A DNA stretch of 64,000 bases from a bacterium (GTDB lineage Bacteria; Vulcanimicrobiota; Xenobia; Xenobiales; JADMJV01), in the NCBI GenBank assembly GCA_030149525.1, contig JASBRJ010000054.1:599-64598 (forward strand). The letters are read 5' to 3'. Positions 4,716 to 45,380 of the stretch are shown one piece after another. Position 1 is the first letter of the stretch, and every line of letters starts with the position of its first letter. The notes below the pieces were generated by a model. The model was not told the DNA's origin. It did no database searches and was given only the letters and a program-made list of their open reading frames with translations. Both the position numbers and the translations under genes were made by a program.

Positions 4716-5591
4716 TCAGTAAGTCTGCTCCAAAGCGTGATAAATCCGTTGAATGTTATCGTACTGCTCTTCTGTGTAGTGAGTATCCAGAGGCTTCTGA
4801 GCAGCCGCCTGCTTGTATCCGCTGATAGCTCTGGCCAGGAGCCGAGGATCGCTTTTGTGGAGCGCGCGAATTCGCTCCTCAGAGAGGCTGCTCACCTCAA
4901 GTGCGGCCTGCCGATTCTTTCTATCGATCCGGTCAAACTCACCTTGATGGTGTGACGTCATGGTGCGAACCATCATTTCGTCGGCTCCACTGACCTTCAT
5001 ACAGTAATCGGTGGCAAGACCCGCCTTGCCGGCGACCCCTACGGGACCGGGCACCAGACTCATCCCGGTCAGAAAACCGTTACTCGCACTCTCCCAGGCA
5101 TCCACCCCACGGCCTTTGTAGGCAAAATATCCCACATGAGCAACGTCGTTGAAAATGGAGACACCGTTGGCGACATGGCCAAGAACTTTAGTCTTCTCGT
5201 TTTCACCGGCAAGACCGGCAGCGGAGGAGACCGACGACAAAAGCTCTGCTCCTCCTTGAGCATAGTTGCCCTGCTTAAAGTTGTGATAGGCGGAGCGAGC
5301 GTAGGTGACAGCCGAAGCGGTCGAGTTGGCAGCACCCACCCGCCCTTTAAGGCCTAAATCTGAGAGGGCGACGGTTCCACTTGGTTGAGGTTTCGTGAGA
5401 AGCTGGGCGCGGCGCTTGTGCTCCAGAGCCCAACGATTTCGTCTTACCCGGCGCTTCACCACTCGGGTCTCCTTACGCCACTTTTTCTCTCTTGGCAGTT
5501 CCTTCTTGAGGATGGCCATGCGTCGCTCCAACCGTCGTTGACTGAGTGTCTTGGGGGCGCTCTCACCATTGGAAATTGTGCTCATGTTCAT
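4716..5591 (-). CDS. Hypothetical protein with a strongly basic (K/R-rich) N-terminus
   Basis: 291-aa ORF. The N-terminal ~70 aa are Lys/Arg-rich (RRLERRMAILKKELPREKKWRK...). No recognisable domain. Confidence 0.45.
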   Translation of the reverse strand: MNMSTISNGESAPKTLSQRRLERRMAILKKELPREKKWRKETRVVKRRVRRNRWALEHKRRAQLLTKPQPSGTVALSDLGLKGRVGAANSTASAVTYARSAYHNFKQGNYAQGGAELLSSVSSAAGLAGENEKTKVLGHVANGVSIFNDVAHVGYFAYKGRGVDAWESASNGFLTGMSLVPGPVGVAGKAGLATDYCMKVSGADEMMVRTMTSHHQGEFDRIDRKNRQAALEVSSLSEERIRALHKSDPRLLARAISGYKQAAAQKPLDTHYTEEQYDNIQRIYHALEQTY

Positions 5592-5693
5592 CCTCCTCGC
5601 AGAATCATAAGTGCGACGCAGCCTCTCAATCAGTGACGGTCGTCAACAAATTCAAGGATCGGCGCTCATTCTTGAGAACATGAAGATTGAGTT

Positions 5694-6662
5694 ATGGATG
5701 CCGGAGCGATCATCGTTGGGTTACCGCCCTCCTACACAGCTAAAGCCAAGGCGGCTAAGGCCCCGCAAAAGACCTTCCCCCTGGAAGGTCGCAAAGGCGA
5801 TCTTTTCGAGGCGGTTTCTCATTTAGGCCGCACTAGCCCCGATGGGCCCACCTACCCCGGGATCGGCTCTATCATCTTCCCCTCGCTCGACGCCATGGAT
5901 GAAACGGTCAAAGCGCTGGGAAAGAAGCCTACCCCCGAGGAAGTCGACCGCTCTAACCTGCGAAGGCTCACTAGAGCTTTAGAACCCGTGCTTTCCGCCT
6001 ATCAGGATTGCTATCCGGAGAAAGGCTTCGACAAGGCTTCCAAAGAGTTGAAGTCGGTGGGGAAAGCTCTTGGGAGCTACAAAGATCTGGCTGTTGTGGA
6101 GAGCGAACTGAAGGCTGTTAACCACGGGGTGGTTCCCAAAGATGTCCAAAAGGCGCTGGACAAATCTCGCAAGAAGAGCGAGGAGAAGTTTAAAGACGCC
6201 TATCGACACTTTCGCAAAAAAGGGCTTCCGAAGGCCCAGGAAGTTCTCTCCAAACCCACCCTCACCGGCGTTCCCGACCCACAGAAACTGGTCAAAGATG
6301 ATCGGACTCGACTTTCGGCCCAGGTGAGCGATTGTCTCGGAAAAACAGAGAAAGTGGGTCTGCACAATCAAGATCCCCACGACTTCCACGAAGGCCGAAA
6401 AGCCTTGCGCTCCACCCTGAATGCCATCAACGCTTCTTCCCAAACCGTGCCGGTAGATAAGCCCGCGGTGGAGCGAGCGACCCAGTTGGTGGACCTTTAC
6501 GGACAAGCTCAAGACGCCAACATCTGTGCCGAGTGGTTGAAGGATAAGGGGTTCAAAGGTCTGGCTAAAAAGGCTCGAGCGCGCTTCGAAACCCTTCAAA
6601 GCCAAGCTCTCGAGCAGGCTCAAGGGTTCGACCTTCATTCCCTCAGGCCTCAGGACTCATAA
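5694..6662 (+). CDS. CHAD-domain-like protein
   Basis: Motifs resembling CHAD (conserved His/Arg helices): NLRRLTRALEPV and HDFHEGRKALRSTLNAI. Confidence 0.4.
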   Translation: MDAGAIIVGLPPSYTAKAKAAKAPQKTFPLEGRKGDLFEAVSHLGRTSPDGPTYPGIGSIIFPSLDAMDETVKALGKKPTPEEVDRSNLRRLTRALEPVLSAYQDCYPEKGFDKASKELKSVGKALGSYKDLAVVESELKAVNHGVVPKDVQKALDKSRKKSEEKFKDAYRHFRKKGLPKAQEVLSKPTLTGVPDPQKLVKDDRTRLSAQVSDCLGKTEKVGLHNQDPHDFHEGRKALRSTLNAINASSQTVPVDKPAVERATQLVDLYGQAQDANICAEWLKDKGFKGLAKKARARFETLQSQALEQAQGFDLHSLRPQDS

Positions 6663-29052: not shown

Positions 29053-30123
29053 ATGGCCACTCAATTTACGGAAATCCGCCTGGATTCACTGCTCCTTCAG
29101 GCTCGAGAAATGGGAGCGGAAGACATCCACCTGCAGGCGGGCTCTCCGCCTCTTTTCAGAGTTTTCGGAGACCTCAAGGCGCGCCAGAATAAGAACGTCA
29201 GCATGGAGGCGTTGTACGATCTTTTGGGTCGAATGTTGGAACCGGAACAACTCCCTCTGCTGGAGAAGCAAAGGCGGCTACGCTGGGTACATTGGGCCTC
29301 CGACGATCGGCTGGTGCGGTGCCAGGCTAGCAAATGGCCCAGCGGCTGCACTCTCACTCTGCGCCTCCTCCGAGAGGAACCGCTCCCGCTAGAAGAACTT
29401 GGGTGGGACTCGCACCTGCCCAACCTGCTTGAAGGCTCGGGCCTGATACTTCTGACAGGTCACGCTGGAAGCGGGGTGAGTACGACCCTGGCCTCACTGG
29501 TGAATCTCCTGAATATGACTTCCCGACAACACATTTTGTGCTTGGAGCATGATCTCGAGATAATGCACCCCTACAAGCTCTCTATGATCAACCAGCGCTG
29601 TTTCGATCGCGACTTCGACTGCTGGAAACAGGCGGTTGGTCAGGCCGCCCGCCAAGAGGTAGACACTCTAGTGCTTCACGACGCCCCGTTGAAGGAGGTT
29701 TGGAGCGAGCTTTGTTCTTTTTTAGACGGCGGTGGTCTAGCACTTGTGACCATGAGAGCGTCAAGTGTTTACCGGGCCCTGGAAAGCCTACCCGACTTCT
29801 ATCCGCCCGCAGAGCAACAGTGGGTCCGCCCTCATCTTAGCCGATACCTCGCCGGTGCCACCCATCAGCGCTTGGTGACGGGCAAGCAGGCTCGATACAT
29901 GGCAGGCGCGCTGCTGACCGCCACATTAGGCATCAGAAATCTGTTACTTGAGAACAAGCTTCGGCAGCTCTCTCGCGCCATGGCCTCGAATCCGACCTGC
30001 CGAACTTTGGAGCAAAGCCTTTGCCTGCTGGTGCAAGACGGCACTCTCCGGGCAGAGGAAGCCCTGGCCGTCAGCGACTACCCCGAAGAACTGAAGAGTT
30101 TACTCGCTGGAGGTGCAAGTTGA
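29053..30123 (+). CDS. PilT-like type IV pilus retraction ATPase homologue with a degenerate Walker A (Lys replaced by Val) and degenerate Asp/His boxes
   Basis: PilT N-domain signature DIHLQAGSPPLFRVFGDL is present. The Walker A region reads GHAGSGVSTTLASLVNLLN where canonical PilT has GPTGSGKSTTLAAMLDYLN. EDPIEF is replaced by EHDLEI, GEMRD by HDAPL, and the His box is absent. Confidence 0.7.
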   Translation: MATQFTEIRLDSLLLQAREMGAEDIHLQAGSPPLFRVFGDLKARQNKNVSMEALYDLLGRMLEPEQLPLLEKQRRLRWVHWASDDRLVRCQASKWPSGCTLTLRLLREEPLPLEELGWDSHLPNLLEGSGLILLTGHAGSGVSTTLASLVNLLNMTSRQHILCLEHDLEIMHPYKLSMINQRCFDRDFDCWKQAVGQAARQEVDTLVLHDAPLKEVWSELCSFLDGGGLALVTMRASSVYRALESLPDFYPPAEQQWVRPHLSRYLAGATHQRLVTGKQARYMAGALLTATLGIRNLLLENKLRQLSRAMASNPTCRTLEQSLCLLVQDGTLRAEEALAVSDYPEELKSLLAGGAS

Positions 30124-31187
30124 GGCAAAACTGGAATCTGAGAGAGCTCTTCACATTGGCTTTAGAAGCCGGAGGCACAAGCCTTCATCTCAACAGCGCA
30201 CTCCCGGCGGTGGCCAAGACCAAAGGCGGCTTGGTGCCACTGACCGAGCAATACCTGACTCCAGACGACTGTGAAGACATAGCGGCCACGCTTTCGACCC
30301 AGGCCGTACATCGTCTGAAGCAGGAGAGTTTCTATGGCCTGGAGCCGGGAATTTGTCGATATCGAGCGGAGCTGTATCGCCAACGAGACGTAATCAGCCT
30401 GATTTTTAAGCTGGCCCCCTGGCGACTGCGCCCTCTAGAAGAACTAGGGTTGCCGCCGAACGTTCCCGAGCTTCTACAGGCACGGCGAGGGCTCATACTC
30501 GTATGCGGCCCCCAGGGAGCGGGCAAGAGTTGGACTCTAGCCGCTCTGCTTGACTATATACATCGGCAGCGGTCTGTTCGGAGCCTTGTGCTGGGCGACC
30601 CGTTGGAGTTTGAGCTTGAAGCCCGACTTGGCATGACAACCACTCAGTCGGTGAAGCAGGGTCACTGGGAGGAGGCCTTAGACCAGATAGAATTCTCCGA
30701 CGTGGACGTGGTAGCGCTCGACGATTTTCCAGTTCGCAGAACCCTTGAAAGAGCACTTGAGTTGGCCGAGGCCGGCATCCTGGTTCTGGCCACTGTTCGC
30801 AACGCCCTCGACGTTAGCAGCAGTCTCTTTGAGCTGTGGACCAAACACCCGGCCTGGCTTCATCACAGCCTGAGAGAACGAGTCAGCCAAGCCCTCCAGG
30901 CAATAATTTTTCAGAAGTTAGTAGCGGGCATGACAGACCAGGAAAAATTCCCGGCAACCGAGATTATGTTGGCGAGTCCCCCGATGCGCCACCTCATCCA
31001 AGAAGAGCGATTCATTCAGTTCTACAACTCTATCCAAACTGGTCTGAACTCCGGGATGCACACTCTTGAGCAATCCCTGTTCGAGTTATTCCGTTCCGGA
31101 TGTATCGACGAGAAAACGGCCCTCTCCGAAACCCGTTACCCGGACGACGTGAGACGAAGCATCGGGACGTGGCGGAGTCGAGATTGA
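30120..31187 (+). CDS. Second PilT-like ATPase homologue, with Walker A intact and the Walker B Glu and His box degenerate
   Basis: Probable TTG start overlapping the upstream stop (TTGA). GLILVCGPQGAGKSWTLAALLDYIH is the Walker A. DVDVVALDDFPV replaces DPDVILVGEMRD, and ATVRN replaces GTLHT. Confidence 0.65.
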   Translation: MRQNWNLRELFTLALEAGGTSLHLNSALPAVAKTKGGLVPLTEQYLTPDDCEDIAATLSTQAVHRLKQESFYGLEPGICRYRAELYRQRDVISLIFKLAPWRLRPLEELGLPPNVPELLQARRGLILVCGPQGAGKSWTLAALLDYIHRQRSVRSLVLGDPLEFELEARLGMTTTQSVKQGHWEEALDQIEFSDVDVVALDDFPVRRTLERALELAEAGILVLATVRNALDVSSSLFELWTKHPAWLHHSLRERVSQALQAIIFQKLVAGMTDQEKFPATEIMLASPPMRHLIQEERFIQFYNSIQTGLNSGMHTLEQSLFELFRSGCIDEKTALSETRYPDDVRRSIGTWRSRD

Positions 31188-34504: not shown

Positions 34505-35275
34505 ATGCTCAAAGCGCGGAAATCTAACCGCATGTGGAACCCACTGGTCCTTTTGAGGCGTCACCCGTTCGAAGTGAAGGCGTTCTTCGACTACTCCCTG
34601 GTTCTCACTTACGCCCTCCCGGCAGATTTTCTCCAGGGCCTGTTGCCTTCCAGGCTGGAGGTTGATCGCTGTGGTGAGCTGGGATTTTTGGCTATCGCAC
34701 TGGTCAAGACGCGCCACCTGAGGCCTGCCCCACTACCGAAATTTCTAGGACAGAGCTTCTTCCTCTCCGGCTATCGGATCTTCTGTCGTTTTCCCGTGGA
34801 AGGAAGACGTTACCGCGGTCTCAAGATTCTGCGCTCCGACACCGACCGCTGGACCATGGTGCTGCTGGGCAACCTCATGACCCACTACTCCTATCGCAAA
34901 GTGAGCATTGAGGAGCATCGCGCCAACTCCAACCTCAAACTTCAGGTCAAGAGCCAAGACGGACAAACGGACCTCACGGTGAGGGTGGCGCTTGACCAGG
35001 CGGAACTGCCTCCCGATACTCCTTTTGCCGACTGGCGAGAGGCCAGAAAGTGGTGCGGGCCGCTGCCCTTCACCTTCAGCCCGGAAAAGGAAACTGGAAA
35101 GATGGTTGTGGTCGAGGGCGTGCGCTCGGAGTGGCAGCCTCAACCGGTGAAGGCTACCGTCGACCGGATAAGCTTTTTTGATCAAGCGGTGTTTCGCGGA
35201 ATAACGCCTGTCTTGGCCAACGCCTTTTACACCGAGCGAATCCCCTACAGTTGGAAGGCCGGTGTGTTGAAATGA
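34505..35275 (+). CDS. DUF2071-family protein
   Basis: Pattern FDYSLVLTYALPADFLQGLLPSRLEVD...YRGLKILRSDTD resembles DUF2071 (YqjF-like). Confidence 0.45.
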   Translation: MLKARKSNRMWNPLVLLRRHPFEVKAFFDYSLVLTYALPADFLQGLLPSRLEVDRCGELGFLAIALVKTRHLRPAPLPKFLGQSFFLSGYRIFCRFPVEGRRYRGLKILRSDTDRWTMVLLGNLMTHYSYRKVSIEEHRANSNLKLQVKSQDGQTDLTVRVALDQAELPPDTPFADWREARKWCGPLPFTFSPEKETGKMVVVEGVRSEWQPQPVKATVDRISFFDQAVFRGITPVLANAFYTERIPYSWKAGVLK

Positions 35276-36015
35276 GACGGAGCCGATTCCAAGGCCTCTT
35301 GAATGTGGTGAGGTTCAACTACGACATGTATCTGAAAGCCGGCCTGGTTCTGGTGCTTGCCTACCTCATCCCCTGGCCCCGGCCTCTGCTCCCTCTGGTG
35401 GGGCTTGGCTGTGTAGGCGCCACCTATTTTTTGCTCGCTTCCTTGCTGGTCTCCCACTACATCTACGACCTTTCCGATCTTTATGGGTGGGGTTGGCTTG
35501 AAAAGCGGTTTCCTCGTCCTGACAGGCTGGTCAATATTCACTCAGGTTTCGACGAAACGACGGAGCAACTGAAACAAGTCTTTCCCCATTGCGAGATCGA
35601 GACCCTGGACTTTTACGACCCGGAATTGATGACTGAGCCGTCCATTGAAAGGGCGCGGGCCACCTACCCCGCCAAGTTCGGGAGGTCTGTGAAATCGCAT
35701 GAGTTACCCCTCGCCGACGGGGCCGAGCCGCTCATCTGCTGCCTGCTGGCGGCCCACGAGTTACGCTCCCATACCGACAAGGTCGCTTTCCTTGGAGAAG
35801 TCGCACGAAGCCTCCACCCGGAGGGGCATTTCGTGATGATCGAACACATGCGGGATCCGGCCAACTTCCTGGCATTCGGGCCCGGTTTCGTGCATTTTTT
35901 CTCCCGCAGCACCTGGCTCCGAGCTCTTTCGGATGCCGGACTGTCGGTGCGAGAAGAGTTTGCCCTGACCCCGTTCTTGAGAGGATTTGTGTGCCGTGCT
36001 ACTTCTCAATCTTAA
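35251..36015 (+). CDS. Membrane-anchored SAM-methyltransferase-like protein
   Basis: Two N-terminal TM helices followed by a Rossmann-like region (LVNIHSGFDETTEQL...). The methyltransferase assignment is tentative. Confidence 0.45.
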   Translation: MEGRCVEMRRSRFQGLLNVVRFNYDMYLKAGLVLVLAYLIPWPRPLLPLVGLGCVGATYFLLASLLVSHYIYDLSDLYGWGWLEKRFPRPDRLVNIHSGFDETTEQLKQVFPHCEIETLDFYDPELMTEPSIERARATYPAKFGRSVKSHELPLADGAEPLICCLLAAHELRSHTDKVAFLGEVARSLHPEGHFVMIEHMRDPANFLAFGPGFVHFFSRSTWLRALSDAGLSVREEFALTPFLRGFVCRATSQS

Positions 36016-36403
36016 AATCGCGGGCTACCTGATGTTCTGCCTGAGTGCTCTGCATCTGGTCTTCCCCAAGCGCTTCCGATGGAAAGAAGATCTCGCCAAA
36101 CTCCAAGATCTCAACCGTCAGATCTTCTGGGTTCACTGCTTCTTTATCTGCCTCATTTTGTTGCTTATGGGTGCCTTGTGCAGCTTCTTCGGCGCAGCCC
36201 TGTTGACAGGTGGCGAGTTGAGGCCCGTGGTGGCCGGAGGGTGTGCGCTCTTCTGGTTTATGAGACTGTTAGCCCAGCTCTTTGTCTACGACTCAGCCCT
36301 GTGGCAAGGCAAGCCCCTGGAAACGTTCGTGCATATCGTCTTCACCGGGCTTTGGAGCTACTTCACTGCGGTTTTCACCTGGGTGGTCGTCACCTCTCCA
36401 TGA
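35987..36403 (+). CDS. Small integral membrane protein
   Basis: Four predicted TM helices. ATGA overlap with the following gene. The start is uncertain. Confidence 0.35.
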   Translation: MCAVLLLNLKIAGYLMFCLSALHLVFPKRFRWKEDLAKLQDLNRQIFWVHCFFICLILLLMGALCSFFGAALLTGGELRPVVAGGCALFWFMRLLAQLFVYDSALWQGKPLETFVHIVFTGLWSYFTAVFTWVVVTSP

Positions 36404-36789
36404 GACCGCTCGAACTCCTGGCAATCCGGGTCATTCTGGCCGCCGTCTGGTTCTACAACGGCCTTTATCTCAAGCTCATCCTGGTCGATCCCGAACATCT
36501 CAAAGTGGTGGAAGCCGTCGGTCAATTAGGGCCTCTGACTCCGGCCCGCTTTCTCTTTTTGATAGGGCTCGGAGAAACGCTTTTAGGGCTGTGGATACTG
36601 AGCGGATTCCTCTATCGCTATTCCTGTGGCCTGCAGTTTGTTCTCATCGTGCTCATGAACTGTATCGGCATCCTTTCCGGCGGAGTGGCAAACCCACCGG
36701 GTCTTGTCATCACCAACCTCCCCCTGTTGGCCGCTATCTGGACCTCCGCTCGCTTAGGGCCGGGAGAATGGACACGTTCCAAACCGTGA
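36400..36789 (+). CDS. DoxX-family membrane protein
   Basis: AIRVILAAVWFYNGLYLKLI... is typical of DoxX. The start is placed at an internal Met overlapping the upstream stop. Confidence 0.5.
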   Translation: MRPLELLAIRVILAAVWFYNGLYLKLILVDPEHLKVVEAVGQLGPLTPARFLFLIGLGETLLGLWILSGFLYRYSCGLQFVLIVLMNCIGILSGGVANPPGLVITNLPLLAAIWTSARLGPGEWTRSKP

Positions 36790-37817
36790 ACATGTGGACC
36801 CGCAGCGGACTTCTGTTCGGAAAAATGTGGGAGGACTCAGATGTTGAGTACAAGCTGTTGCAGCAGGTCCTCGCCCGCAAAGGCAAATGCCGCGCTCTTT
36901 GCATCGCGTCTTCCGGTGATACGGCGTTTCATCTTGCCTCCGCCTCCCAAGCCGAAATTACGGCGTTCGACATCAATCCTTCTCAGATCTCTCTGTGCCG
37001 GCTCAAGCAAGCGATCCTCTCTCAGGGCGGCGGGAAAGCTTTGGCCGACCTTCTCTATTCCGACGCTCGCCCGGCCCTGGGAGTCTATAGGCTGCCTGAA
37101 GAGTGCGGGATTTTCTGGCAGCGACACAAGCCACTACTCAAGAGCGGCTTTCATCGGGCGGGTCGAGTCGACAAGATGATGGCTTTCTGGGTCTGGTTGT
37201 TCTCAAAACTTGTGGTCTCCCGCTCGCGGATCGACCAGCTTCTCAGCTGTGCCGACCTTGACCAACAAAAGGCCCTGGTGGACGGTCAATGGCGAGGCTG
37301 GAAATGGGACCTGGGCCTCAAAGTGGCTTTTTGGCCACCCATCCTTCGGGCCATCTACGGTTCTGAACTGGTGAGCGGTTTGCCCCCCGATTTCGGAGAG
37401 CAGATAGGGCAGAGAATGGTGAGGTTTTTGACCGAGTTCGAAGCCGATAAAAATCCCTACCTCTGGCAAACCTTCGGGCCCCCACGCTTGGGTCGTTCCC
37501 TTCCTCCCTACTTGAAGAGTTGGGGCATGGTGAATTTTCAAGCCGGTACGATGGAGCAGGTGGCTGAGGGGCCGTACGACCTCTTCACCCTTTCCAATAT
37601 TCTGGAAGTCGCGTCCCCATCCCAAATTCAAGAGCTGCTAGAGTCGGTGTTAAAATCGGCCGCACCGGGCGCTCTGGTCTGCTTGCGCTTCATGGCACCG
37701 CGCCCTCGGGTATGGAAAGACCAAGAATATCTAGAGGAAGAAAGCTCTGAGGCGACCCGCTCCGATCGAGCCTTCTTCTGTAACGGTATACAGCTTTATC
37801 GGATGCCGTCAGCCTAA
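36768..37817 (+). CDS. DUF3419 / BtaA-like protein (S-adenosylmethionine:diacylglycerol 3-amino-3-carboxypropyltransferase family)
   Basis: N-terminal FGKMWEDSDVEYKLL motif and overall length (~350 aa) fit DUF3419. Confidence 0.5.
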   Translation: MDTFQTVNMWTRSGLLFGKMWEDSDVEYKLLQQVLARKGKCRALCIASSGDTAFHLASASQAEITAFDINPSQISLCRLKQAILSQGGGKALADLLYSDARPALGVYRLPEECGIFWQRHKPLLKSGFHRAGRVDKMMAFWVWLFSKLVVSRSRIDQLLSCADLDQQKALVDGQWRGWKWDLGLKVAFWPPILRAIYGSELVSGLPPDFGEQIGQRMVRFLTEFEADKNPYLWQTFGPPRLGRSLPPYLKSWGMVNFQAGTMEQVAEGPYDLFTLSNILEVASPSQIQELLESVLKSAAPGALVCLRFMAPRPRVWKDQEYLEEESSEATRSDRAFFCNGIQLYRMPSA

Positions 37818-37933
37818 GCACAGTCGACCGACCCGAGCCATTTTTTTTTGACCCTTTACAGATCTCTTCAAACGGGTTAGACTTCGAACTCTAAAGAACG
37901 AACAAAAATTCACGTAAAGGAGTTCGCGCAAAA

Positions 37934-39430
37934 ATGAGCGATACGCAAACAAAGAACGCCCCGGCCAAAGGACAACCCAAGACAGCCGTCCCCATTACCG
38001 TGGCCCACGGTGATGGAATCGGACCAGAGATCATGGGTGCAACTCTGCACATACTTCGAGAGGCGGGAGCTCTACTCGATATTGAAACTATCGATATCGG
38101 CGAGAGCGTCTACAAAGCCGGCTTCTCCTCCGGAATCAAGCCCGAAGCTTGGGATTCGCTCCGTCGGACCGGGGTATTTTTGAAAGCCCCCATCACCACT
38201 CCGCAGGGTGGCGGATACAAGAGTCTCAACGTGACCGTGAGGAAAAGCCTCGGTCTCTATGCGAATCTCAGGCCTTGTGTCGCCTATGCGCCCTACGTTC
38301 ACACCAAGCACCCCGGCATGGACGTCGTTATTGTGAGGGAGAACGAAGAAGACTTGTACGCAGGTATTGAGCACCGCCAGACCGGTGAGGTCTATCAGTG
38401 CCTCAAACTCATCTCTCGACCAGGTTGTGAGAAGGTTGTGCGATACGCTTTTGAATTCGCCCGGTCTCAGGGTCGGAAAAAAGTGACTTGCTTTACCAAA
38501 GACAACATCATGAAACTGACCGACGGTCTCTTTCATAAAGTCTTCGACGAAATTGCTCAGGAGTATTCCGACATCGAAAACGAGCATTGGATCGTGGATA
38601 TCGGAGCGGCGAAGTTGGCGGATACCCCAAGTCAGTTCGACGTTGTGGTGATGCCCAACCTTTATGGGGATATTCTCTCCGACGTGGCCGCTCAAATCGC
38701 AGGCTCCGTGGGGCTGGCAGGCTCGGCCAACATCGGCGAACACTGCGCCATGTTCGAAGCCATTCACGGCTCGGCACCTCGTCGCGCCGGTCAAAACATG
38801 GCCAATCCTTCCGGTCTGCTCCAAGGCTCGCTTTTGATGCTTGATCATATCGGACAATCCGATGTTGCGGCCAGAATCCAAGATGCCTGGCTCAAGACTC
38901 TCGAAGACGGCTATCACACCTATGACATCGCGACTCCGGAGCACACCAAGGAAACCGTCGGTACGAAAGAATTCGCAGAACATGTTGTGAAGCGTCTAGG
39001 TCAGAAGCCGGAGAAACTCCAGGGGCGAAAGATGTCGGGCTCGAGCTTTAAAGTCCCCACGGCCAAGAGACCTCTTCTCGACCGCGCGTCGCTGAAGAAA
39101 ACCACCCTGGGCGTCGACGTCTTCCTACACTGTTGCGACACCGATGCCGAGAAGCTCGGTACGAGACTTCATGCCAGCTCAACCTCCCAACTGGAACTGA
39201 AGATGATCACCAATCGAGGTCAGAAAGTTTGGCCCGACGGAATGCCGGAAACCTTCTGCACCGACCATTGGCGTTGCCGCTTCGTTCATCCGGAGGGCAA
39301 GGAGATCACCAATCGAGATGTGGTGGAACTGTTGGATAAGCTAGAGTCCAACGACTTCGACTTCATTAAGACCGAGCACCTTTGCAGTTTCGACGGAGAG
39401 CGCGGCTTTTCCATGGGACAAGGCGAGTAA
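37934..39430 (+). CDS. icd: Isocitrate dehydrogenase, homodimeric ICDH/IPMDH family, with a ~140-aa C-terminal extension
   Basis: GDGIGPEIM, LRPCVAY, NLYGDILSD and GSAPRRAG motifs are present. AAAGGAG Shine-Dalgarno upstream. Confidence 0.85.
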   Translation: MSDTQTKNAPAKGQPKTAVPITVAHGDGIGPEIMGATLHILREAGALLDIETIDIGESVYKAGFSSGIKPEAWDSLRRTGVFLKAPITTPQGGGYKSLNVTVRKSLGLYANLRPCVAYAPYVHTKHPGMDVVIVRENEEDLYAGIEHRQTGEVYQCLKLISRPGCEKVVRYAFEFARSQGRKKVTCFTKDNIMKLTDGLFHKVFDEIAQEYSDIENEHWIVDIGAAKLADTPSQFDVVVMPNLYGDILSDVAAQIAGSVGLAGSANIGEHCAMFEAIHGSAPRRAGQNMANPSGLLQGSLLMLDHIGQSDVAARIQDAWLKTLEDGYHTYDIATPEHTKETVGTKEFAEHVVKRLGQKPEKLQGRKMSGSSFKVPTAKRPLLDRASLKKTTLGVDVFLHCCDTDAEKLGTRLHASSTSQLELKMITNRGQKVWPDGMPETFCTDHWRCRFVHPEGKEITNRDVVELLDKLESNDFDFIKTEHLCSFDGERGFSMGQGE

Positions 39431-39454
39431 CATCACGTTCAAGGAGCTGAGAGA

Positions 39455-40924
39455 ATGTCTTATTTAGAAATGTCGGCAGAAGTACAGGCCCTGTTGAGGG
39501 TGAGCTATTCCCTACTCACACTTCTTATGCTCGGTCTGAGTTTCCCCAATTCCCATCGTTTTTTTTCCACGGAAAAATACCGCGGATACGCCGAATCAGG
39601 ACGAATCAAAGACATTCTTCTCAGCCCTTGGGGTCGGGTTATCTTGCTATCGGTTTGGGTCTCGGCCTCGTGCTGGCTCTTAATGGGCCGATATACCGTT
39701 GTAGCAGCTCTGATCTGCCTTGGTCTATCTCGCTACTTTTTCGTGAGCGCCCGTTGGACAAGCATCGCTCGCGGGATGGGAGCTCCAGGTTTCATGCTCT
39801 ACTGGCTTGGAGCTCTCGTCTTCCTTCTGGAGTACAGTTCAAAATTCGAGCCGACCGGTTACCTTCGCGCCCTGGTGCTCCTGGCGTTCAAGATCGATTT
39901 CGCCGTTATCTTCCTCTGCGCCGGACAGTATAAACTTTTCTCGGGCTACCCCCAGAACAACGGTATGGAGCGTGGGATGGTCAACCCAGGGTGGGGATAC
40001 TGGTGGAAACAGTATCGGCGTCTACCCCCCGGTCACCCTGTCTTTCGAACACTCAATCATCTCGCCTACCTCACGGAAATTGCCACAGCTGTTCTTATGA
40101 TGATTCCGAGATTTTCGGAACTAGGGGCTCTCACGCTTGCCGCCACATTCGTGTTCATTGGATGCAACATCCGGCTGGGATTTCTGTGCGAGACGGTTAT
40201 TGCTTGCTGCTTCTTATTCGGCGCTCCCGGCGGCGTCATAGACACTGTGGCGAAGTGGTTCTTCACATCCCCGCCATCCAGTGCCGGCATAACCGCTCTG
40301 GCCCCTCTCAACCTTTTCATCGCAGGCTTCCTATGTTTCTACATCCTCATGCTACCGGTGACGAAAGCCGGGCTGTATTACAACTTCTACGCTCGTAAGA
40401 GATTGCCCCAGAAATGGCAAGCGTGGCAAGACTACTGGGCCAACCTGATGGGAATCATCATCTGGCGAGTGTTCACAATCGATAACACGAACTTTTATGT
40501 GCAGGCTTGGTTTGAAAATAAGAAGACCGGTGAGCGAAGGCTCTACTCCAAAATCGGTAAGCTCGATCCGGAAGCCGATTTTCGCTACCTTCATGTTTGT
40601 GAATACGTTTGTTTCGCCTCGGTTTTCACGACCCTGAAGTACTTCCCGAGCAACTCCAACCTTTTCGTGACGAGGCTTTTGAGATACGCAAAAAGCATCC
40701 CGGTTCCCGATGAGCATGTCCTGGTCTTTGAGTATATCGATATCCAGAAAACAGAGGCGGAGTTCCGAGACGTGTCCAGTCGAGAATTTCTAGTGAATCC
40801 GGCCAACAACGAAGTGGTGGAGAAAAGCCTGGCAGACGGTAAAAGCACAACCGATCACCTGCGTTTTTCCGAACTTCACCAGGGCCATCGTGTGGGCTCC
40901 TACGCCCCCGCCGAGGCCGAGTAA
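39455..40924 (+). CDS. Polytopic membrane protein, possibly HTTM-domain-like
   Basis: At least 8 predicted TM helices. Sits 24 nt downstream of icd on the same strand. Confidence 0.5.
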   Translation: MSYLEMSAEVQALLRVSYSLLTLLMLGLSFPNSHRFFSTEKYRGYAESGRIKDILLSPWGRVILLSVWVSASCWLLMGRYTVVAALICLGLSRYFFVSARWTSIARGMGAPGFMLYWLGALVFLLEYSSKFEPTGYLRALVLLAFKIDFAVIFLCAGQYKLFSGYPQNNGMERGMVNPGWGYWWKQYRRLPPGHPVFRTLNHLAYLTEIATAVLMMIPRFSELGALTLAATFVFIGCNIRLGFLCETVIACCFLFGAPGGVIDTVAKWFFTSPPSSAGITALAPLNLFIAGFLCFYILMLPVTKAGLYYNFYARKRLPQKWQAWQDYWANLMGIIIWRVFTIDNTNFYVQAWFENKKTGERRLYSKIGKLDPEADFRYLHVCEYVCFASVFTTLKYFPSNSNLFVTRLLRYAKSIPVPDEHVLVFEYIDIQKTEAEFRDVSSREFLVNPANNEVVEKSLADGKSTTDHLRFSELHQGHRVGSYAPAEAE

Positions 40925-40928
40925 GAGA

Positions 40929-41588
40929 CTACGGCTTGACGGATTTGGCCTTGGGTTCGAACCGGTAGATATCGGAGATTCCGTGCTGGCTCGTGACCTT
41001 CTCGGCCACATCTTTCAAGATGCCGTTGGAGATATCGTAAACCCATCCGTGAACATAGGGGAGCTTTCGCTTTTGCCAGGACTCTTGAATGATGGAAGTG
41101 GCGCACAGGTTGTTCACCTGCTCGATGACGTTCAACTCCACCAGACGACGGAGGCGTTCGTCTTCGTCTTCAATAGCCTCAAGCTCGTCCCGGTGCAAGC
41201 GACGGACATCCTTAATGTGGTTCAACCAGTTGTCGATCATACCGTGGCTCTTGTTGGAGAGCGAGGCGGCCACGCCACCGCAGCCATAGTGACCGCAGAC
41301 GACAACAAGCTTAACCTCCAACACGTTCACGGCGTACTCCAAGACGCTGAGACAGTTCAGATCGGTGTGGACCACCACGTTAGCAATGTTGCGATGGACA
41401 AAAACCTCGCCCGGCAGAGTACCTGTGATCTGATTGGCCGGGACTCGGCTATCAGCGCAACCGATCCAAAGCGCTTTAGGCTTTTGGGTTTCAGATAGAG
41501 ACGAGAAAAACTCGGGATTGTGAAGGTTGGTCAACTCCACAAATTTGCGATTTCCGTCTTTCAGTTGCTTGTATGTATCTTCGGGCAT
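40929..41588 (-). CDS. Beta-class carbonic anhydrase
   Basis: Zinc-ligand motifs IGCADSRV and VCGHYGCGG. AAGGAG Shine-Dalgarno before the ATG at 41588. Confidence 0.8.
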   Translation of the reverse strand: MPEDTYKQLKDGNRKFVELTNLHNPEFFSSLSETQKPKALWIGCADSRVPANQITGTLPGEVFVHRNIANVVVHTDLNCLSVLEYAVNVLEVKLVVVCGHYGCGGVAASLSNKSHGMIDNWLNHIKDVRRLHRDELEAIEDEDERLRRLVELNVIEQVNNLCATSIIQESWQKRKLPYVHGWVYDISNGILKDVAEKVTSQHGISDIYRFEPKAKSVKP

Positions 41589-41682
41589 GGTAATCTCCTT
41601 GTCTGAAGATTCCGTGAATCCGAGACGAATTCCCCCGGAAAACAAGCCGTGAATTATGAGGATTTGATGAAGAAACTCCGCC

Positions 41683-42525
41683 CTAAGGATTACACACCGG
41701 ACAGTAGCAAGGGTCGGCTGATTCCCGATTGGCCATCTTCCGGCACTCGCGGTGTTGGCAAACTCGACAGACGAAGACCTCTTCTTTGATACCTTCCGTG
41801 GGATAGTCACAGAGACTGCAAGGTAGGCCTCTCACAACTTCGCGCACCCGAAAACCGGGCGATTGACAGGCGGGGCAGAAACTCCTCAGAGAGGTCACCA
41901 GGTCTCGGGTTGCTTGCTCGATGGCGGACATGCGAGTGGGATTCACCATGGCGCGCATGTCGGCTTCAATAAAGGCTCTTTGCTGCCGCCCCAAGAGAAA
42001 CTCCACAGACTCCTGGAAGATCTGGTGAGTGACGATCCCTTTCTTGAGGAACTCGAACTCTTCCGGTCCCGAACGAACGATAAGACCGTGCTTCGGGAAG
42101 CCGAGCCTTTGGGCGAACTCTTCTGCCTCCTCAAGACTCGACACCCAGCCGGAACGAAAGTTCGTCTTTGTACCGCTCCACCAGCCCTCAACGACCGTTT
42201 CGGTAGCAGCGTCCAGGAGAACGACAAGCTCGCGACCCAGAGGCACGAAAGGTATGACAGGGTGAGGCCCGTAGGCCCCCTCGCTCGCCACCGCCTTCTG
42301 CAAACCGGTCAGTTCAATCGCTTTCCTCGCTTTGGCCACAGCCGTCTCAAATTGGCTGCCCGGCCTTTCTCGCTCCCCCGAAAAGGTACCAAAGTCGTCG
42401 CTTGGGAAGTCTGGCGGCACGGTTATCAGGAGGCCGACCTGTCGCAGATGAGCTGCGATCGCCGCCTCCTTGCCATGCCTTGTGGCCAGAGCGACATCTT
42501 CAAAGGTCGCCTCCTCTTTCGACAC
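41683..42525 (-). CDS. Hypothetical protein with a C-terminal Cys-rich zinc-ribbon
   Basis: C-terminal CPACQ...CSLCDY...CRVCQHRECR...CYCPVCNP gives four or more CxxC pairs. Confidence 0.45.
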   Translation of the reverse strand: MSKEEATFEDVALATRHGKEAAIAAHLRQVGLLITVPPDFPSDDFGTFSGERERPGSQFETAVAKARKAIELTGLQKAVASEGAYGPHPVIPFVPLGRELVVLLDAATETVVEGWWSGTKTNFRSGWVSSLEEAEEFAQRLGFPKHGLIVRSGPEEFEFLKKGIVTHQIFQESVEFLLGRQQRAFIEADMRAMVNPTRMSAIEQATRDLVTSLRSFCPACQSPGFRVREVVRGLPCSLCDYPTEGIKEEVFVCRVCQHRECRKMANRESADPCYCPVCNP

Positions 42526-42529
42526 CGCT

Positions 42530-43012
42530 TTACCTTAGGGCGAGAGGAGAGACAAACTGGAGCTTTTCGGGATGAAGGACCAGGAACTGCCCCCGGTCTC
42601 CCTCCATCCAAGCATGCAGGCGAATCTTCTTCCTGACCAACTGATTCCCCAGCTGTTCAAACGTTGCAAGATGCCTGAACTGTCTCATAACGTGCAAGAA
42701 ATGAGTGTCCGCCTCCAGGAAACGGCAGCCGGAGTGAGTGAAAAAGACGATATCCTTGATCTGGTTTGGGTGGCTCACGAGACTCAGCACCTGTTGAACC
42801 GTGGGCCGCCATTTGTGACCACAGCAACCTCCGGGGTTCTGAATCACCCCGATCGGCTTGGAAGAGCCCAGATAACGGTCCAGTCCAAATCCCGTTTCAC
42901 TGCAGCTAAGACCAAGAATCCCTTCTGCGCGCCCCATTTTGATGTTATTAAAGAGATTCCAGAACGAACCGAGAGAGTCTATCAGTTGCTCCTCAGCTAA
43001 CAGAACACTCAT
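42530..43012 (-). CDS. Divergent beta-carbonic-anhydrase-like protein (Cys-His-Cys ligands retained, Asp/Arg dyad replaced)
   Basis: LSCSETGF and FTHSGCRF align positionally with CADSRV and GHYGCGG of the neighbouring beta-CA. Start placed at MSVLLAEEQ, 2 nt after the IDH2 stop. Confidence 0.35.
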   Translation of the reverse strand: MSVLLAEEQLIDSLGSFWNLFNNIKMGRAEGILGLSCSETGFGLDRYLGSSKPIGVIQNPGGCCGHKWRPTVQQVLSLVSHPNQIKDIVFFTHSGCRFLEADTHFLHVMRQFRHLATFEQLGNQLVRKKIRLHAWMEGDRGQFLVLHPEKLQFVSPLALR

Positions 43013-43013
43013 A

Positions 43014-44519
43014 TCATTCTCCCTGTCCGAGCGAGTAGCCACGCTCTCCGGCAAAAGAGCAAAGATTCTCAGTTTTGATGAAATCGTAGCCCCGTTCCGA
43101 GAGTCGGGTGAGCAATTGAAGGATGTGGGCGTGGTTCACCGCCGAACCCTCGGGATGAACGAATCGGCATCTCCAGTGATCGGTGCAGAACGTCTCCGGA
43201 AGGGGATTGGGCCAAACCTTCTGGCCCCGATTGGTGATCATCTTGATCTTCAATTGCTCCGTGGAAGCCTCTGTGAGACCCAGTCCAAGCCTCTCGGGAT
43301 CAAGATCGGTGTGATGGAGGAAGACGTCAACGCCCATCGTTTCCTTGCGAAGTGCCTTCAGATCGAGAGTGGTTCGCTGAATCTTGGGCTTGGCAACCGA
43401 AGAGTTTTCCGATTTGAGATCGCGAACCGTCAACTGCTTTGGCGCCGAGCCCAGTCTCTCGACAACAGCATCAGCAAACTCGTCTGTACCGACCAATCTG
43501 CGGGTGTGCTCTTGGGTGGAAATGTCGAAGGTGTGAACACCGTCTTCCAGAGTTCGGAGCCAGGCTTTCTGAATTCTTGTTGCCACCTCGGGCTGGCCGA
43601 GATGAACCAACATTTGATTGGCAGCCTGGAGCAGCCCCGACGGATTGGCTTGATTCTTTCCGGCAATCTGGGGAGCCGAACCGTGAATCGCCTCGAACAT
43701 AGCACAGCTCTCCCCGATGTTGGCAGAACCGGCAAGCCCCACCGAACCGGCGATCTGTGCGGCCACGTCGGAGACGATGTCGCCATACAGATTGGGGGTC
43801 ACGATCAGATCAAAATCTTCCGGAGTGTCGGCCAGGCGAGCAACTCCGATGTCAATAATCATGTGGTCCTTCTCCAGCTCGCCGTACTCCGAACCGATCT
43901 CATCAAAAACGCGATGAAAAAGACCGTCGGTAAGCTTCATAATGTTGTCCTTGGTGAAGCAAGTGACTTTTTTTCGACCGTTGGCGCGAGCGTACTCAAA
44001 GGCAAACCTGACGATTTTCTCACAACCCGGTCTGGTGATGAGCTTCAAGCATTGATAGACTTCACCGGTCTGGCGATGCTCAATACCGGCATAGAGGTCC
44101 TCTTCATTCTCCCTGACGATGACCACATCCATACCCGGGTGACGAGTTCTTACGAAAGGTGCGTAAGCGACGCATGGCCTGAGATTGGCGTAGAGCCCAA
44201 GGCTTTTTCGGATGGTGACATTCAGACTTTTGTAGCCTCCACCTTGGGGAGTTGTAATAGGACCCTTCAGGAGAACCCCGCTCTCTCGAATCGCCTCCCA
44301 CGCCTCAGGCCGAATGCCGGAGGTGAATCCCTGCTTGTAGACTTTCTCTCCGATATCGATAGCGGTAATATCGAGCGATGCACCGGCTTCTTTGAGAATT
44401 CGCAGAGTGGCGGACATTATTTCCGGCCCGATTCCGTCACCGTAAGCCACCGCAAGGGCCGGCTTCGTGAGCGTGCCGATCTCCTGACGTTCTGTCCTGT
44501 TTTCTAGAGCAATATTCAT
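43014..44519 (-). CDS. icd: Isocitrate dehydrogenase paralogue (~80% aa identity to the copy at 37934-39430)
   Basis: Same motifs and the same C-terminal extension as the first copy. DNA identity to copy 1 is roughly 75%, which is not recent. Confidence 0.85.
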   Translation of the reverse strand: MNIALENRTERQEIGTLTKPALAVAYGDGIGPEIMSATLRILKEAGASLDITAIDIGEKVYKQGFTSGIRPEAWEAIRESGVLLKGPITTPQGGGYKSLNVTIRKSLGLYANLRPCVAYAPFVRTRHPGMDVVIVRENEEDLYAGIEHRQTGEVYQCLKLITRPGCEKIVRFAFEYARANGRKKVTCFTKDNIMKLTDGLFHRVFDEIGSEYGELEKDHMIIDIGVARLADTPEDFDLIVTPNLYGDIVSDVAAQIAGSVGLAGSANIGESCAMFEAIHGSAPQIAGKNQANPSGLLQAANQMLVHLGQPEVATRIQKAWLRTLEDGVHTFDISTQEHTRRLVGTDEFADAVVERLGSAPKQLTVRDLKSENSSVAKPKIQRTTLDLKALRKETMGVDVFLHHTDLDPERLGLGLTEASTEQLKIKMITNRGQKVWPNPLPETFCTDHWRCRFVHPEGSAVNHAHILQLLTRLSERGYDFIKTENLCSFAGERGYSLGQGE

Positions 44520-44547
44520 CCCAAACCCTCTCCCTTTAACCTTAACT

Positions 44548-44600
44548 TGAACGAAATTTCTTGCACGAATTTCTTTTCGTGTATCATATTTCGCACATTA
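44548..44600. promoter_or_regulatory. Divergent promoter region with short direct repeats between IDH2 and an HTH regulator
   Basis: ACGAAATTTCTT and ACGAATTTCTTTT direct repeats, followed by a TATCAT -10-like element. Confidence 0.3.
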
Positions 44601-44664
44601 ACCCGGTTGGGAGTATCTGTCAACCGCCGCAGGACGGAAATGTTCTCGGGAGAACCTGGGGGCA

Positions 44665-45012
44665 ATGTCTTCAAACTCTTGGACGTTCCTAACCAATCAC
44701 GGGCACCTTCTGCTGTGCCTGGCTGCGGAGCCTGATTTGCGAGTCCGGGAACTTGCTCTAAAGATCGGTATCACCGAGAGAGCTGTTCAGAAAATCATCG
44801 CCGAGATGGTGGAAGACGGCTATCTGGAAAAGCAAAAAGAGGGTCGACGAAACAGCTATCGCGTTGTTATGGGCCGGCACCTCAGGCATCCGGTTGAAGG
44901 TCATCGTCAGGTGGAAGACCTGATTGAAATGGTTCTTGGAGCCGAGGCGGTGGAGGCGGCTCGCCAGGTTTTTTTCGATGAAGAGACCGAAGACGAGTCG
45001 AACTCCCTTTAA
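44665..45012 (+). CDS. Winged helix-turn-helix transcriptional regulator (MarR/ArsR-like)
   Basis: LRVRELALKIGITERAVQKIIAEMVEDGYLEKQKEGRRNSYR is an HTH plus wing pattern. Confidence 0.55.
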   Translation: MSSNSWTFLTNHGHLLLCLAAEPDLRVRELALKIGITERAVQKIIAEMVEDGYLEKQKEGRRNSYRVVMGRHLRHPVEGHRQVEDLIEMVLGAEAVEAARQVFFDEETEDESNSL

Positions 45013-45380
45013 CTTAAAGATCTCTTTAGGTTTTGTTCAGGATCGAAGTCACTGCTAGAGTTAAGATCCTGACACCAAGACAACTCGGGAGATCTTTCTT
45101 TGCTCAGCTCTTCTTTCACTCCATCGACATTGCTCGGTTCCTCTTTGGGGACGTTTCATTCCCAACATCGCCGAAAGCGCAGGAGAAAGCGTCGCCGCCC
45201 ACCCCTGACAGTCGTTTTTTTATTGGGGGGTATCGTGGGTTACGCGTTAGCGCAAAAAGGCCTCAACAAGGGCGAAAGTGACTCAGAGAACTCGGAAGAA
45301 TCGGTTCCAACCTCCCCCGACCAGGAATAGTTCTTACCACGCAAAAGCCGAGAGGACCCATTCTCAGGAGTTCTCCTCAC

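Follow-up and report, generated by a model that had tools for sequence, protein, structure and literature searches.

A recurrent gene neighborhood that may manage inorganic carbon around subfamily-IV isocitrate dehydrogenases

Isocitrate dehydrogenases (IDHs) of subfamily IV are homodimers of 480 to 500 residues in which a unique C-terminal region lies over the clasp (PMC3521221). DabAB (DAB) systems, in which DabA (PF10070) is paired with DabB (PF00361), are presented as energy-coupled inorganic-carbon pumps in the work of Desmarais et al. (2019), as cited in PMC13147460. We analyzed a locus in which two subfamily-IV IDH genes, IDH1 and IDH2, enclose genes for carbonic anhydrase (CA)-like proteins. 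It lies in a 64,000-nucleotide (nt) stretch of DNA from a bacterium of the Xenobia lineage (assembly GCA_030149525.1, contig JASBRJ010000054.1, positions 599 to 64,598 of the forward strand), which we call the window and to which all coordinates refer unless a locus number is given. The IDH type, the canonical β-CA, and the idea of toolkits made up of CAs and transporters are already known. Literature searches returned no report of a subfamily-IV IDH operon-linked to CA-like genes and no papers on PF18324, on TIGR02924, on DUF6671, or on DabA with IDH in this sense. In the literature searched, the family of miniature β-CA-like proteins (ORF5, for open reading frame 5), the family of membrane proteins called MEMB here, and the IDH- or DabAB-centered neighborhood of both with DUF6671 appear to be undescribed. 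The genes at the locus are as follows.

37934-39430, plus strand: IDH1, a subfamily-IV (Thermus/Rickettsia-type) isocitrate dehydrogenase of 498 amino acids (aa)
39455-40924, plus strand: MEMB, an uncharacterized polytopic membrane protein of 489 aa
40929-41588, minus strand: canonical β-class CA of 219 aa, at the end of the minus-strand group
41683-42525, minus strand: DUF6671/zinc-ribbon protein of 280 aa, with a GTG start
42530-43012, minus strand: ORF5, a predicted miniature β-CA-fold protein of 160 aa
43014-44519, minus strand: IDH2, a subfamily-IV isocitrate dehydrogenase of 501 aa
44520-44664, no strand: putative promoter/operator region of 145 bp between the divergent IDH2 and regulator genes
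44665-45012, plus strand: small winged-helix (MarR/ArsR-like) putative transcription factor of 115 aa, divergent from IDH2

The central observation is that the partnerships of IDH with ORF5, with DUF6671, and with MEMB persist through rearrangement and across phyla, and that the same partners alternatively accompany inorganic-carbon pumps (DabAB and SbtA-family genes). A preliminary description of this DNA had made its interpretation depend on conservation of the neighborhood in relatives, and ORF5, DUF6671, and MEMB do recur beside subfamily-IV IDH genes. The layouts are listed below; HTH is a helix-turn-helix regulator gene, and a double slash stands at the place taken in the window by the IDH2-HTH divergent region.

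Window and L001: HTH // IDH2-ORF5-DUF6671-CA
L002: HTH // IDH-ORF5-DUF6671
L085: HTH // IDH-ORF5-MEMB
L086: HTH-IDH-ORF5
L098 and L099: HTH // IDH-ORF5-MEMB, with a convergent DUF6671 gene
L089 and L090: HTH // IDH-DUF6671
L091: IDH-MEMB
L003: IDH, a gap, DUF6671, then SulP and β-CA genes
L070, L078, and L032 (Flavobacteriales): LysR // IDH and DUF6671 (order varies), plus an SbtA-family permease gene (PF05982)
L087 (without IDH): DabB-DabA-MEMB, divergent from HTH-DUF6671-ORF5
L100 and L101 (without IDH): DabA-ORF5-DUF6671

Further DUF6671 genes lie directly downstream of DabA (L046, L051, and L076), and on one short contig (L066) a partial DabA gene is found ~1 kb upstream of DUF6671. Among 90 DUF6671 loci, 16 have a DabA/B, SbtA-family, CmpC-like, SulP, or β-CA gene within 6 kb, and 10 have an IDH gene within the same distance. 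On contigs with usable flanks, ORF5 always adjoins a subfamily-IV IDH, DabA, or DUF6671 gene, and its predicted translational coupling to IDH occurs in five lineages. The earlier, general idea that CO2 handling is coupled to IDH is thus backed by comparative genomics, through the IDH, DabAB, and SbtA-family neighbors. A different fate met the use of the canonical β-CA as the main argument for that idea: this gene is the least conserved neighbor and is not beside the module in L002, L085, L089, or L098. In L003, a 530-bp stretch between IDH and DUF6671 (5472-6000 of that locus), at the usual place of ORF5, contains no plausible ORF; a decayed ORF5 and a regulatory region are both conceivable.

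The arrangement of the locus itself was as previously outlined, with two full-length convergent IDH genes around four other genes and all six ORFs at the positions reported for them. MEMB starts 24 nt past IDH1. In the minus-strand group, the ATG of ORF5 stands 1 nt past the IDH2 stop codon, an arrangement in which ORF5 is predicted to be translationally coupled to IDH2, and DUF6671 follows ORF5 after 4 nt. The β-CA gene, which has a 95-nt gap upstream of it, may plausibly be cotranscribed with IDH2, though with less certainty than ORF5 and DUF6671. The true ATG of the β-CA gene, at 41588, gives a protein of 219 aa; a 293-aa reading from a GTG at 41810 was rejected, since it would overlap the DUF6671 gene. 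The two convergent groups do nearly abut, as had been remarked, with 4 nt between the stop codons (TAA at 40922-40924 and, on the complementary strand, TAG at 40929-40931). No terminator, inverted repeat, or hairpin was found between these stops, promoter and terminator scans being at background level, and transcripts of each operon may read antisense into the other across 40922-40931. A search of 37500-45200 against Rfam returned zero RNA families.

Both IDH proteins belong to the same well-defined family. Pfam assigned PF00180 and PF18324 to each (PF18324, E = 8e-46 and 5e-44); the NF006673 equivalog model scored 777 bits for IDH1 and 752 bits for IDH2 (cut-off, 509), and TIGR02924 scored 712 and 684 bits, respectively (cut-off, 561). 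The nearest solved structure of both is the IDH of Thermus thermophilus (2D1C), which aligns with them end to end (E = 3e-113). The common C-terminal extension of ~140 aa, which the preliminary description had called unusual, is indeed present in both proteins, but it corresponds to PF18324, a domain of ~110 aa, is standard for subfamily-IV IDHs, and is present in 2D1C. Likewise, the copies are similar, as had been said, but at 71% aa and 69% nt identity (over 1332 nt) rather than the ~80% and ~75% first given. We took as invariant every column with conservation of at least 97% across 117 relatives; IDH1 keeps 182 of these 182 columns and IDH2 keeps 179, with L-to-I, V-to-L, and G-to-P changes in the remainder. 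Essentially all family-invariant residues are retained, and neither copy looks like a pseudoenzyme.

The copies differ at the cofactor site, where the dipeptide after the motif HGSAP is RR in IDH1 (HGSAP-RR-AG, 38759-38764) and QI in IDH2 (HGSAP-QI-AG, 43686-43691). In the wider IDH and isopropylmalate dehydrogenase family, this position separates NADP-dependent enzymes (Lys-Tyr, as in Escherichia coli) from NAD-dependent ones (Asp-Ile). The NADP-dependent Thermus enzyme carries KY in our alignment to 2D1C, so that its APKYAG compares with APRRAG in IDH1 and APQIAG in IDH2. RR is the commonest state among 122 relatives (54 sequences), followed by DI (15), RI (11), TI (10), and AI (8); QI, PI, SI, MI, and AL were found in 3 sequences each. 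The contrast of RR with QI suggests that IDH1 and IDH2 may differ in cofactor use. The great variability of this dipeptide suggests repeated turnover of cofactor specificity within a subfamily that is annotated uniformly as NADP dependent, and the two motif versions within one organism would constitute a natural experiment in IDH cofactor specificity.

Neighbor-joining trees (300 bootstrap replicates, custom distances) never placed IDH1 and IDH2 as sisters (0 of 300). IDH1 fell in a clade with 89% support together with the IDHs of L091, L085, L098, and L002 and the proteins P0171 and P0172, and IDH2 lay outside it, ~70% identical to every relative found and placed, with weak bootstrap support, near P0183 and P0173, the PI-motif IDH of L089, its tentative sister. 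By these placements, the copies are long-diverged paralogues, or else xenologues inside this group; they did not arise by local duplication. A recent tandem or inverted duplication was rejected on the same trees and because separate counterparts of the copies exist elsewhere, each with the partner it has in the window: in L091, a MEMB with 76% identity to that of the window comes after an IDH with 87% identity to IDH1, and in L089 and L090 the IDH with the PI motif is followed by DUF6671.

The two CA-type genes had been described as a canonical β-CA and a divergent β-CA-like protein, and both assignments held. The former matches PF00484 at 190 bits (E = 3e-56; cut-off, 25.7), scores 240 bits with the Can-type equivalog NF007756, slightly below the cut-off of 251, and has readable CADSR and GHYGCG motifs, the CxDxR and HxxC zinc-site signatures of the class. 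ORF5, in turn, goes unrecognized by Pfam and NCBIfam models even at E ≤ 10, and its family is extremely small. A word-indexed search of 5.8 billion clustered proteins found one near-identical match, and an exhaustive HMMER scan of 1.84 billion proteins found 12 cluster representatives, including one spurious match, P0126, which we rejected as a homologue and left out of the alignment. This 1259-aa protein is built of ~22 near-identical 57-aa tandem repeats; its eleven matches to ORF5 fell on residues 42-74 (E = 7.5e-13), and it resembles the translation of a satellite repeat. A profile of the ORF5 family searched against the PDB returned 11 matches, all 11 of them β-CAs, carbonyl sulfide (COS) hydrolases, or CS2 hydrolases, with CcaA (5SWC) the best (E = 7e-6). 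The AlphaFold model (pLDDT, 90) pointed the same way: the top 50 Foldseek matches listed from the PDB were all β-CAs, and the best was again 5SWC (E = 5e-5; TM score, 0.52). On this profile and model evidence, we consider ORF5 to be a true but very rare β-CA-fold homologue and its family a new, very rare branch of the β-CA superfamily.

Compared with β-CAs such as CcaA and E. coli Can, ORF5 has the predicted fold and the Cys...His-x-x-Cys ligands, a QN-GG segment that matches the RN-xN strand, and a C-terminal hG/hAW strand in common. Conserved residues of the family include C37, E39, Q58, H93, C96, and H133; C37, H93, and C96, each at least 90% conserved, align onto the Cys-His-Cys zinc ligands of β-CAs and form a predicted zinc site. 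The proteins differ from β-CAs in their small size (140 to 160 aa) and at the CxDxR motif, which reads C-S-E-T-G in ORF5, with a conserved Glu at the Asp position and Arg absent from its position throughout the family. Given this loss of the catalytic Asp-Arg dyad, we did not file ORF5 as a CA, and activity cannot be assumed from this sequence. The possibility that it is a fragment of DabA was discarded, as hhalign gave a probability of 0.9% and no meaningful similarity.

The protein earlier called a zinc-ribbon protein proved to be a member of DUF6671 (PF20376; E = 3.5e-55; 187.6 bits, with the cut-off at 23.8; all 217 profile positions covered) with a C-terminal double zinc ribbon of four CxxC pairs. 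In its N-terminal domain of ~210 aa, a 26-sequence alignment identified invariant residues that include H17, K19, D43, T47, E51, R54, S81-E82-G83, D189, and R191. The AlphaFold model (pLDDT, 94) has only weak similarity to the ITPase/Ham1/Maf fold (E = 7e-4; TM score, 0.29/0.41), and the sequence profile found nothing in the PDB apart from zinc ribbons. At least 586 matches occur in GTDB species-representative genomes, mainly in cyanobacteria, Bacteroidota, and alkaliphilic Firmicutes; the viral contigs searched gave zero matches. Many hosts beyond the cyanobacteria and Bacteroidota are alkaliphiles, among them Evansella, Alkalihalobacterium, Alkalibacterium, Alkaliphilus, and a Dethiobacter metagenome-assembled genome (MAG) with an isolate name that starts with CROMO (loci L009, L025, L029, L031, L036, L050, L069, and L071), a distribution that fits a role of DUF6671 tied to scarcity of bicarbonate or CO2. 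Sua5/TsaC (threonylcarbamoyl-AMP synthase), an enzyme that uses bicarbonate, is encoded 0 to 70 bp past DUF6671 in L010, L023, L053, L070, L076, and L077; it usually follows DUF6671 directly in Bacteroidota and does so also in one MAG labeled Nitrospirota. Directly upstream of DUF6671, the Flavobacteriales loci encode proteins of ~85 to 105 aa that lack Pfam matches and are not homologous to ORF5 (L070, 9040-10019; L078, 9693-9998; L032, 9738-9998).

By its hydropathy, MEMB has ~8 hydrophobic stretches between residues 10 and 305, followed by ~180 aa of soluble C-terminal sequence. Searches of Pfam, NCBIfam, and the PDB gave no match, the sole signal being DoxX at E = 0.43, and a guess from the architecture that MEMB is an HTTM/vitamin-K-carboxylase-like or DoxX protein was dropped, as no family model, NCBIfam entry, or PDB structure supported it. 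In addition to the L091 protein, homologues are found in L085 (67% identical), L098 (66%), and L087 (53%). MEMB and its homologues define a new family of membrane proteins that is also found with DabAB pumps. A metagenome scan added six distant loci (L092-L097), in which the neighbors are uncharacterized proteins, a GGDEF protein, and a CHASE2 cyclase.

The region between IDH2 and the winged-helix gene (44520-44664) contains the invariant 9-mer CGTCCTGCG, a TTGACA box, and palindromes of the ACGAA/GCGAA-N6-TTCGT/TTCGC type, present in the window as ACGAAAAGAAATTCGT and in relatives in the GCGAA-N6-TTCGC form. Since the equivalent intergenic regions of L085, L089, and L098 carry the same elements, the region is probably a promoter/operator common to these loci, to which the HTH protein would bind. 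That protein has weak HTH-family matches, its orthologues are annotated as MarR_2/HTH_24, and homologues 54 to 72% identical stand beside the module in L002, L085, L086, L087, L089, and L098; we regard it as a putative local regulator of this module.

How such a locus might work is inferred throughout; this applies to the direction in which flux runs, to a CA activity of ORF5, to physical coupling, and to the target of the regulator. Our tentative reading, to which we would give somewhat less than an even chance, is that the locus is a conserved module that manages inorganic carbon around IDH, retaining carbon for anaplerosis and for the supply of 2-oxoglutarate. IDH would yield 2-oxoglutarate and release CO2, which the β-CA would rehydrate to bicarbonate before it escapes from the cell; ORF5 together with MEMB may help in this CO2-to-bicarbonate step, by analogy with the β-CA-like DabA and its membrane partner DabB. 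The bicarbonate could then supply the anaplerotic carboxylations that restore oxaloacetate, which is required for each new 2-oxoglutarate, so that synthesis of 2-oxoglutarate might continue in CO2-poor, alkaline seawater. IDH1 (RR) and IDH2 (QI) would probably differ in the cofactor that they use in this scheme, and DUF6671 would be an accessory enzyme or regulator, possibly nucleotide dependent. If this is correct, heterotrophic marine bacteria wire a decarboxylase of the tricarboxylic acid (TCA) cycle directly to proteins that handle CO2 and bicarbonate, which bears on the extent of “dark” or anaplerotic carbon fixation and on how such cells cope with low CO2. For DUF6671, the neighborhoods described here are a first functional context.

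A bolder extension, which we think improbable, is that ORF5, MEMB, and DUF6671 constitute a new inorganic-carbon device that docks on a source or sink of CO2 (IDH or DabAB). It could take the form of a Dab-analogous, membrane-coupled, one-way CO2 hydratase or of a CO2-trapping complex, and it would amount to a “metabolic carbon-concentrating” mechanism that recaptures TCA-cycle CO2 in heterotrophic marine bacteria. The likeness to DabAB is the pairing of a β-CA-like soluble protein with a polytopic membrane protein, and members of the ORF5, DUF6671, and MEMB families occur in or beside DabAB operons (L087, L100/L101, L046, L051, and L076). The differences are the negligible hhalign probability for ORF5 against DabA, the lack of a PF00361 signal in MEMB, and the absence of DabA and DabB from the window, and a Dab-like mechanism for ORF5 and MEMB is speculation by analogy. 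The IDH and DUF6671 genes of Flavobacteriales, in a LysR-flanked string with the SbtA-family permease, resemble bicarbonate-transporter operons, and the SulP and β-CA genes 1 to 3 kb from IDH-DUF6671 in L003 resemble known SulP-CA pairs; in contrast, the window has neither transporter, and its regulator is of the small MarR/ArsR-like type, not LysR.

Several observations weigh against a module for managing inorganic carbon. Only in this species does the canonical β-CA adjoin the module, and the next closest example, in L003, lies 2.7 kb away, so that the strongest catalytic element of the model is not conserved; ORF5, lacking the Asp-Arg dyad that β-CA catalysis needs, may be inactive. Most DUF6671 genes, chiefly cyanobacterial ones, have no IDH or inorganic-carbon gene nearby, and the same holds for the distant MEMB homologues of L092-L097. 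The 64-kb window contains no DabAB, SbtA-family, or SulP gene (DabA and DabB were searched for with tblastn), and the host's anaplerotic carboxylases were not seen in it. Finally, the gene-neighbor counts are raw, non-statistical tallies that related genomes inflate.

Two similar genes in inverted orientation within 6.6 kb could, formally, reflect a collapsed or inverted repeat that gave a false second IDH. However, 69% nt identity is far too low for misassembly, and counterparts of each copy exist separately in other organisms. Moreover, an independent ENA contig (L001) that is 98 to 100% identical has the identical layout, and the IDH1 and IDH2 proteins each recur on 12 to 18 contigs, with lengths up to 97 kb, in NCBI, ENA, and Logan data. 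An artefact, the doubt raised in the preliminary description, is effectively refuted, and the duplication is genuine. It is also conceivable that the genes are not functionally coupled at all and merely lie between two housekeeping IDHs, their adjacency reflecting common ancestry of related lineages. The poor conservation of the canonical β-CA would fit this explanation, as would the concentration of many IDH-linked loci in one IDH clade, which could represent related organisms. We nevertheless consider it very unlikely, because the association survives reordering (IDH-ORF5-DUF6671, IDH-ORF5-MEMB, IDH-DUF6671, DUF6671-IDH-SbtA, and DabA-ORF5-DUF6671), extends to the Flavobacteriales, of a different phylum, in which the IDHs are only ~60 to 66% identical, and is such that ORF5, where flanks are usable, is never away from IDH, DabA, or DUF6671.

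The remaining explanations accept the coupling but give it another meaning. The preliminary description had suggested that one paralogue runs in the carboxylating direction, with a link to the reductive TCA (rTCA) cycle, and we found no evidence in support of this. In its full form, one paralogue, most plausibly IDH2, would convert 2-oxoglutarate, CO2, and NAD(P)H to isocitrate within a reductive or reversed TCA route or a carbon-assimilating shunt, the CA-type proteins supplying CO2 drawn from the bicarbonate pool. IDH uses CO2 and not bicarbonate, and a CA beside a CO2-using enzyme makes mechanistic sense; co-occurrence of the partner families with DabAB and SbtA-family uptake implies a demand for inorganic carbon; and the family-typical RR is replaced by QI in IDH2 and by PI in its tentative sister. 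The rTCA enzymes that form isocitrate, namely the Chlorobium IDH and the Hydrogenobacter 2-oxoglutarate carboxylase with oxalosuccinate reductase, belong to the same CO2-requiring reaction family but to IDH subfamilies other than that of the window. The window genes examined include neither ATP-citrate lyase nor 2-oxoglutarate:ferredoxin oxidoreductase nor any further marker of the rTCA cycle, and L085 and L098 have the module with a single IDH of the ordinary RR motif, so that a specialized paralogue is not required. Both copies, moreover, keep essentially all invariant residues of oxidative IDHs, and the Flavobacteriales hosts are aerobic heterotrophs. Reductive carboxylation thus seems to us rather unlikely. 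The degraded active site of ORF5 makes a regulatory role of ORF5 and DUF6671 a serious rival, even if one that we still count as unlikely. The partners would then be proteins that regulate IDH or help it mature, not enzymes that handle carbon: ORF5 a dead β-CA that serves as a CO2/bicarbonate-sensing or zinc-binding subunit, and DUF6671 a nucleotide-dependent modifier that tunes IDH, as AceK does E. coli IDH, and elsewhere DabAB. Retention of the zinc ligands in ORF5 after loss of the dyad, its apparent translational coupling to IDH in five lineages, the invariant polar residues and weak ITPase/Ham1-like fold signal of DUF6671, which suggest nucleotide binding, and the attachment of the ORF5-DUF6671 pair to two different “clients” (IDH or DabA) are all consistent with such a role. 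Yet the ITPase-like similarity is weak, with only zinc ribbons found in the PDB by profile, and most DUF6671 genes stand without IDH or DabA.

Elsewhere in the window, two adjacent or overlapping ORFs at 29053-31187 have weak matches to T2SSE (type II/IV secretion ATPase) and may represent one frameshifted or miscalled gene. A plus-strand gene string at 34505-37817, ending 117 nt upstream of IDH1, encodes a DUF2071 protein, uncharacterized proteins of 254 and 138 aa, a DoxX_3 protein, and a DUF3419 protein (putative S-adenosylmethionine-dependent transferase); the same string is also present in L001.

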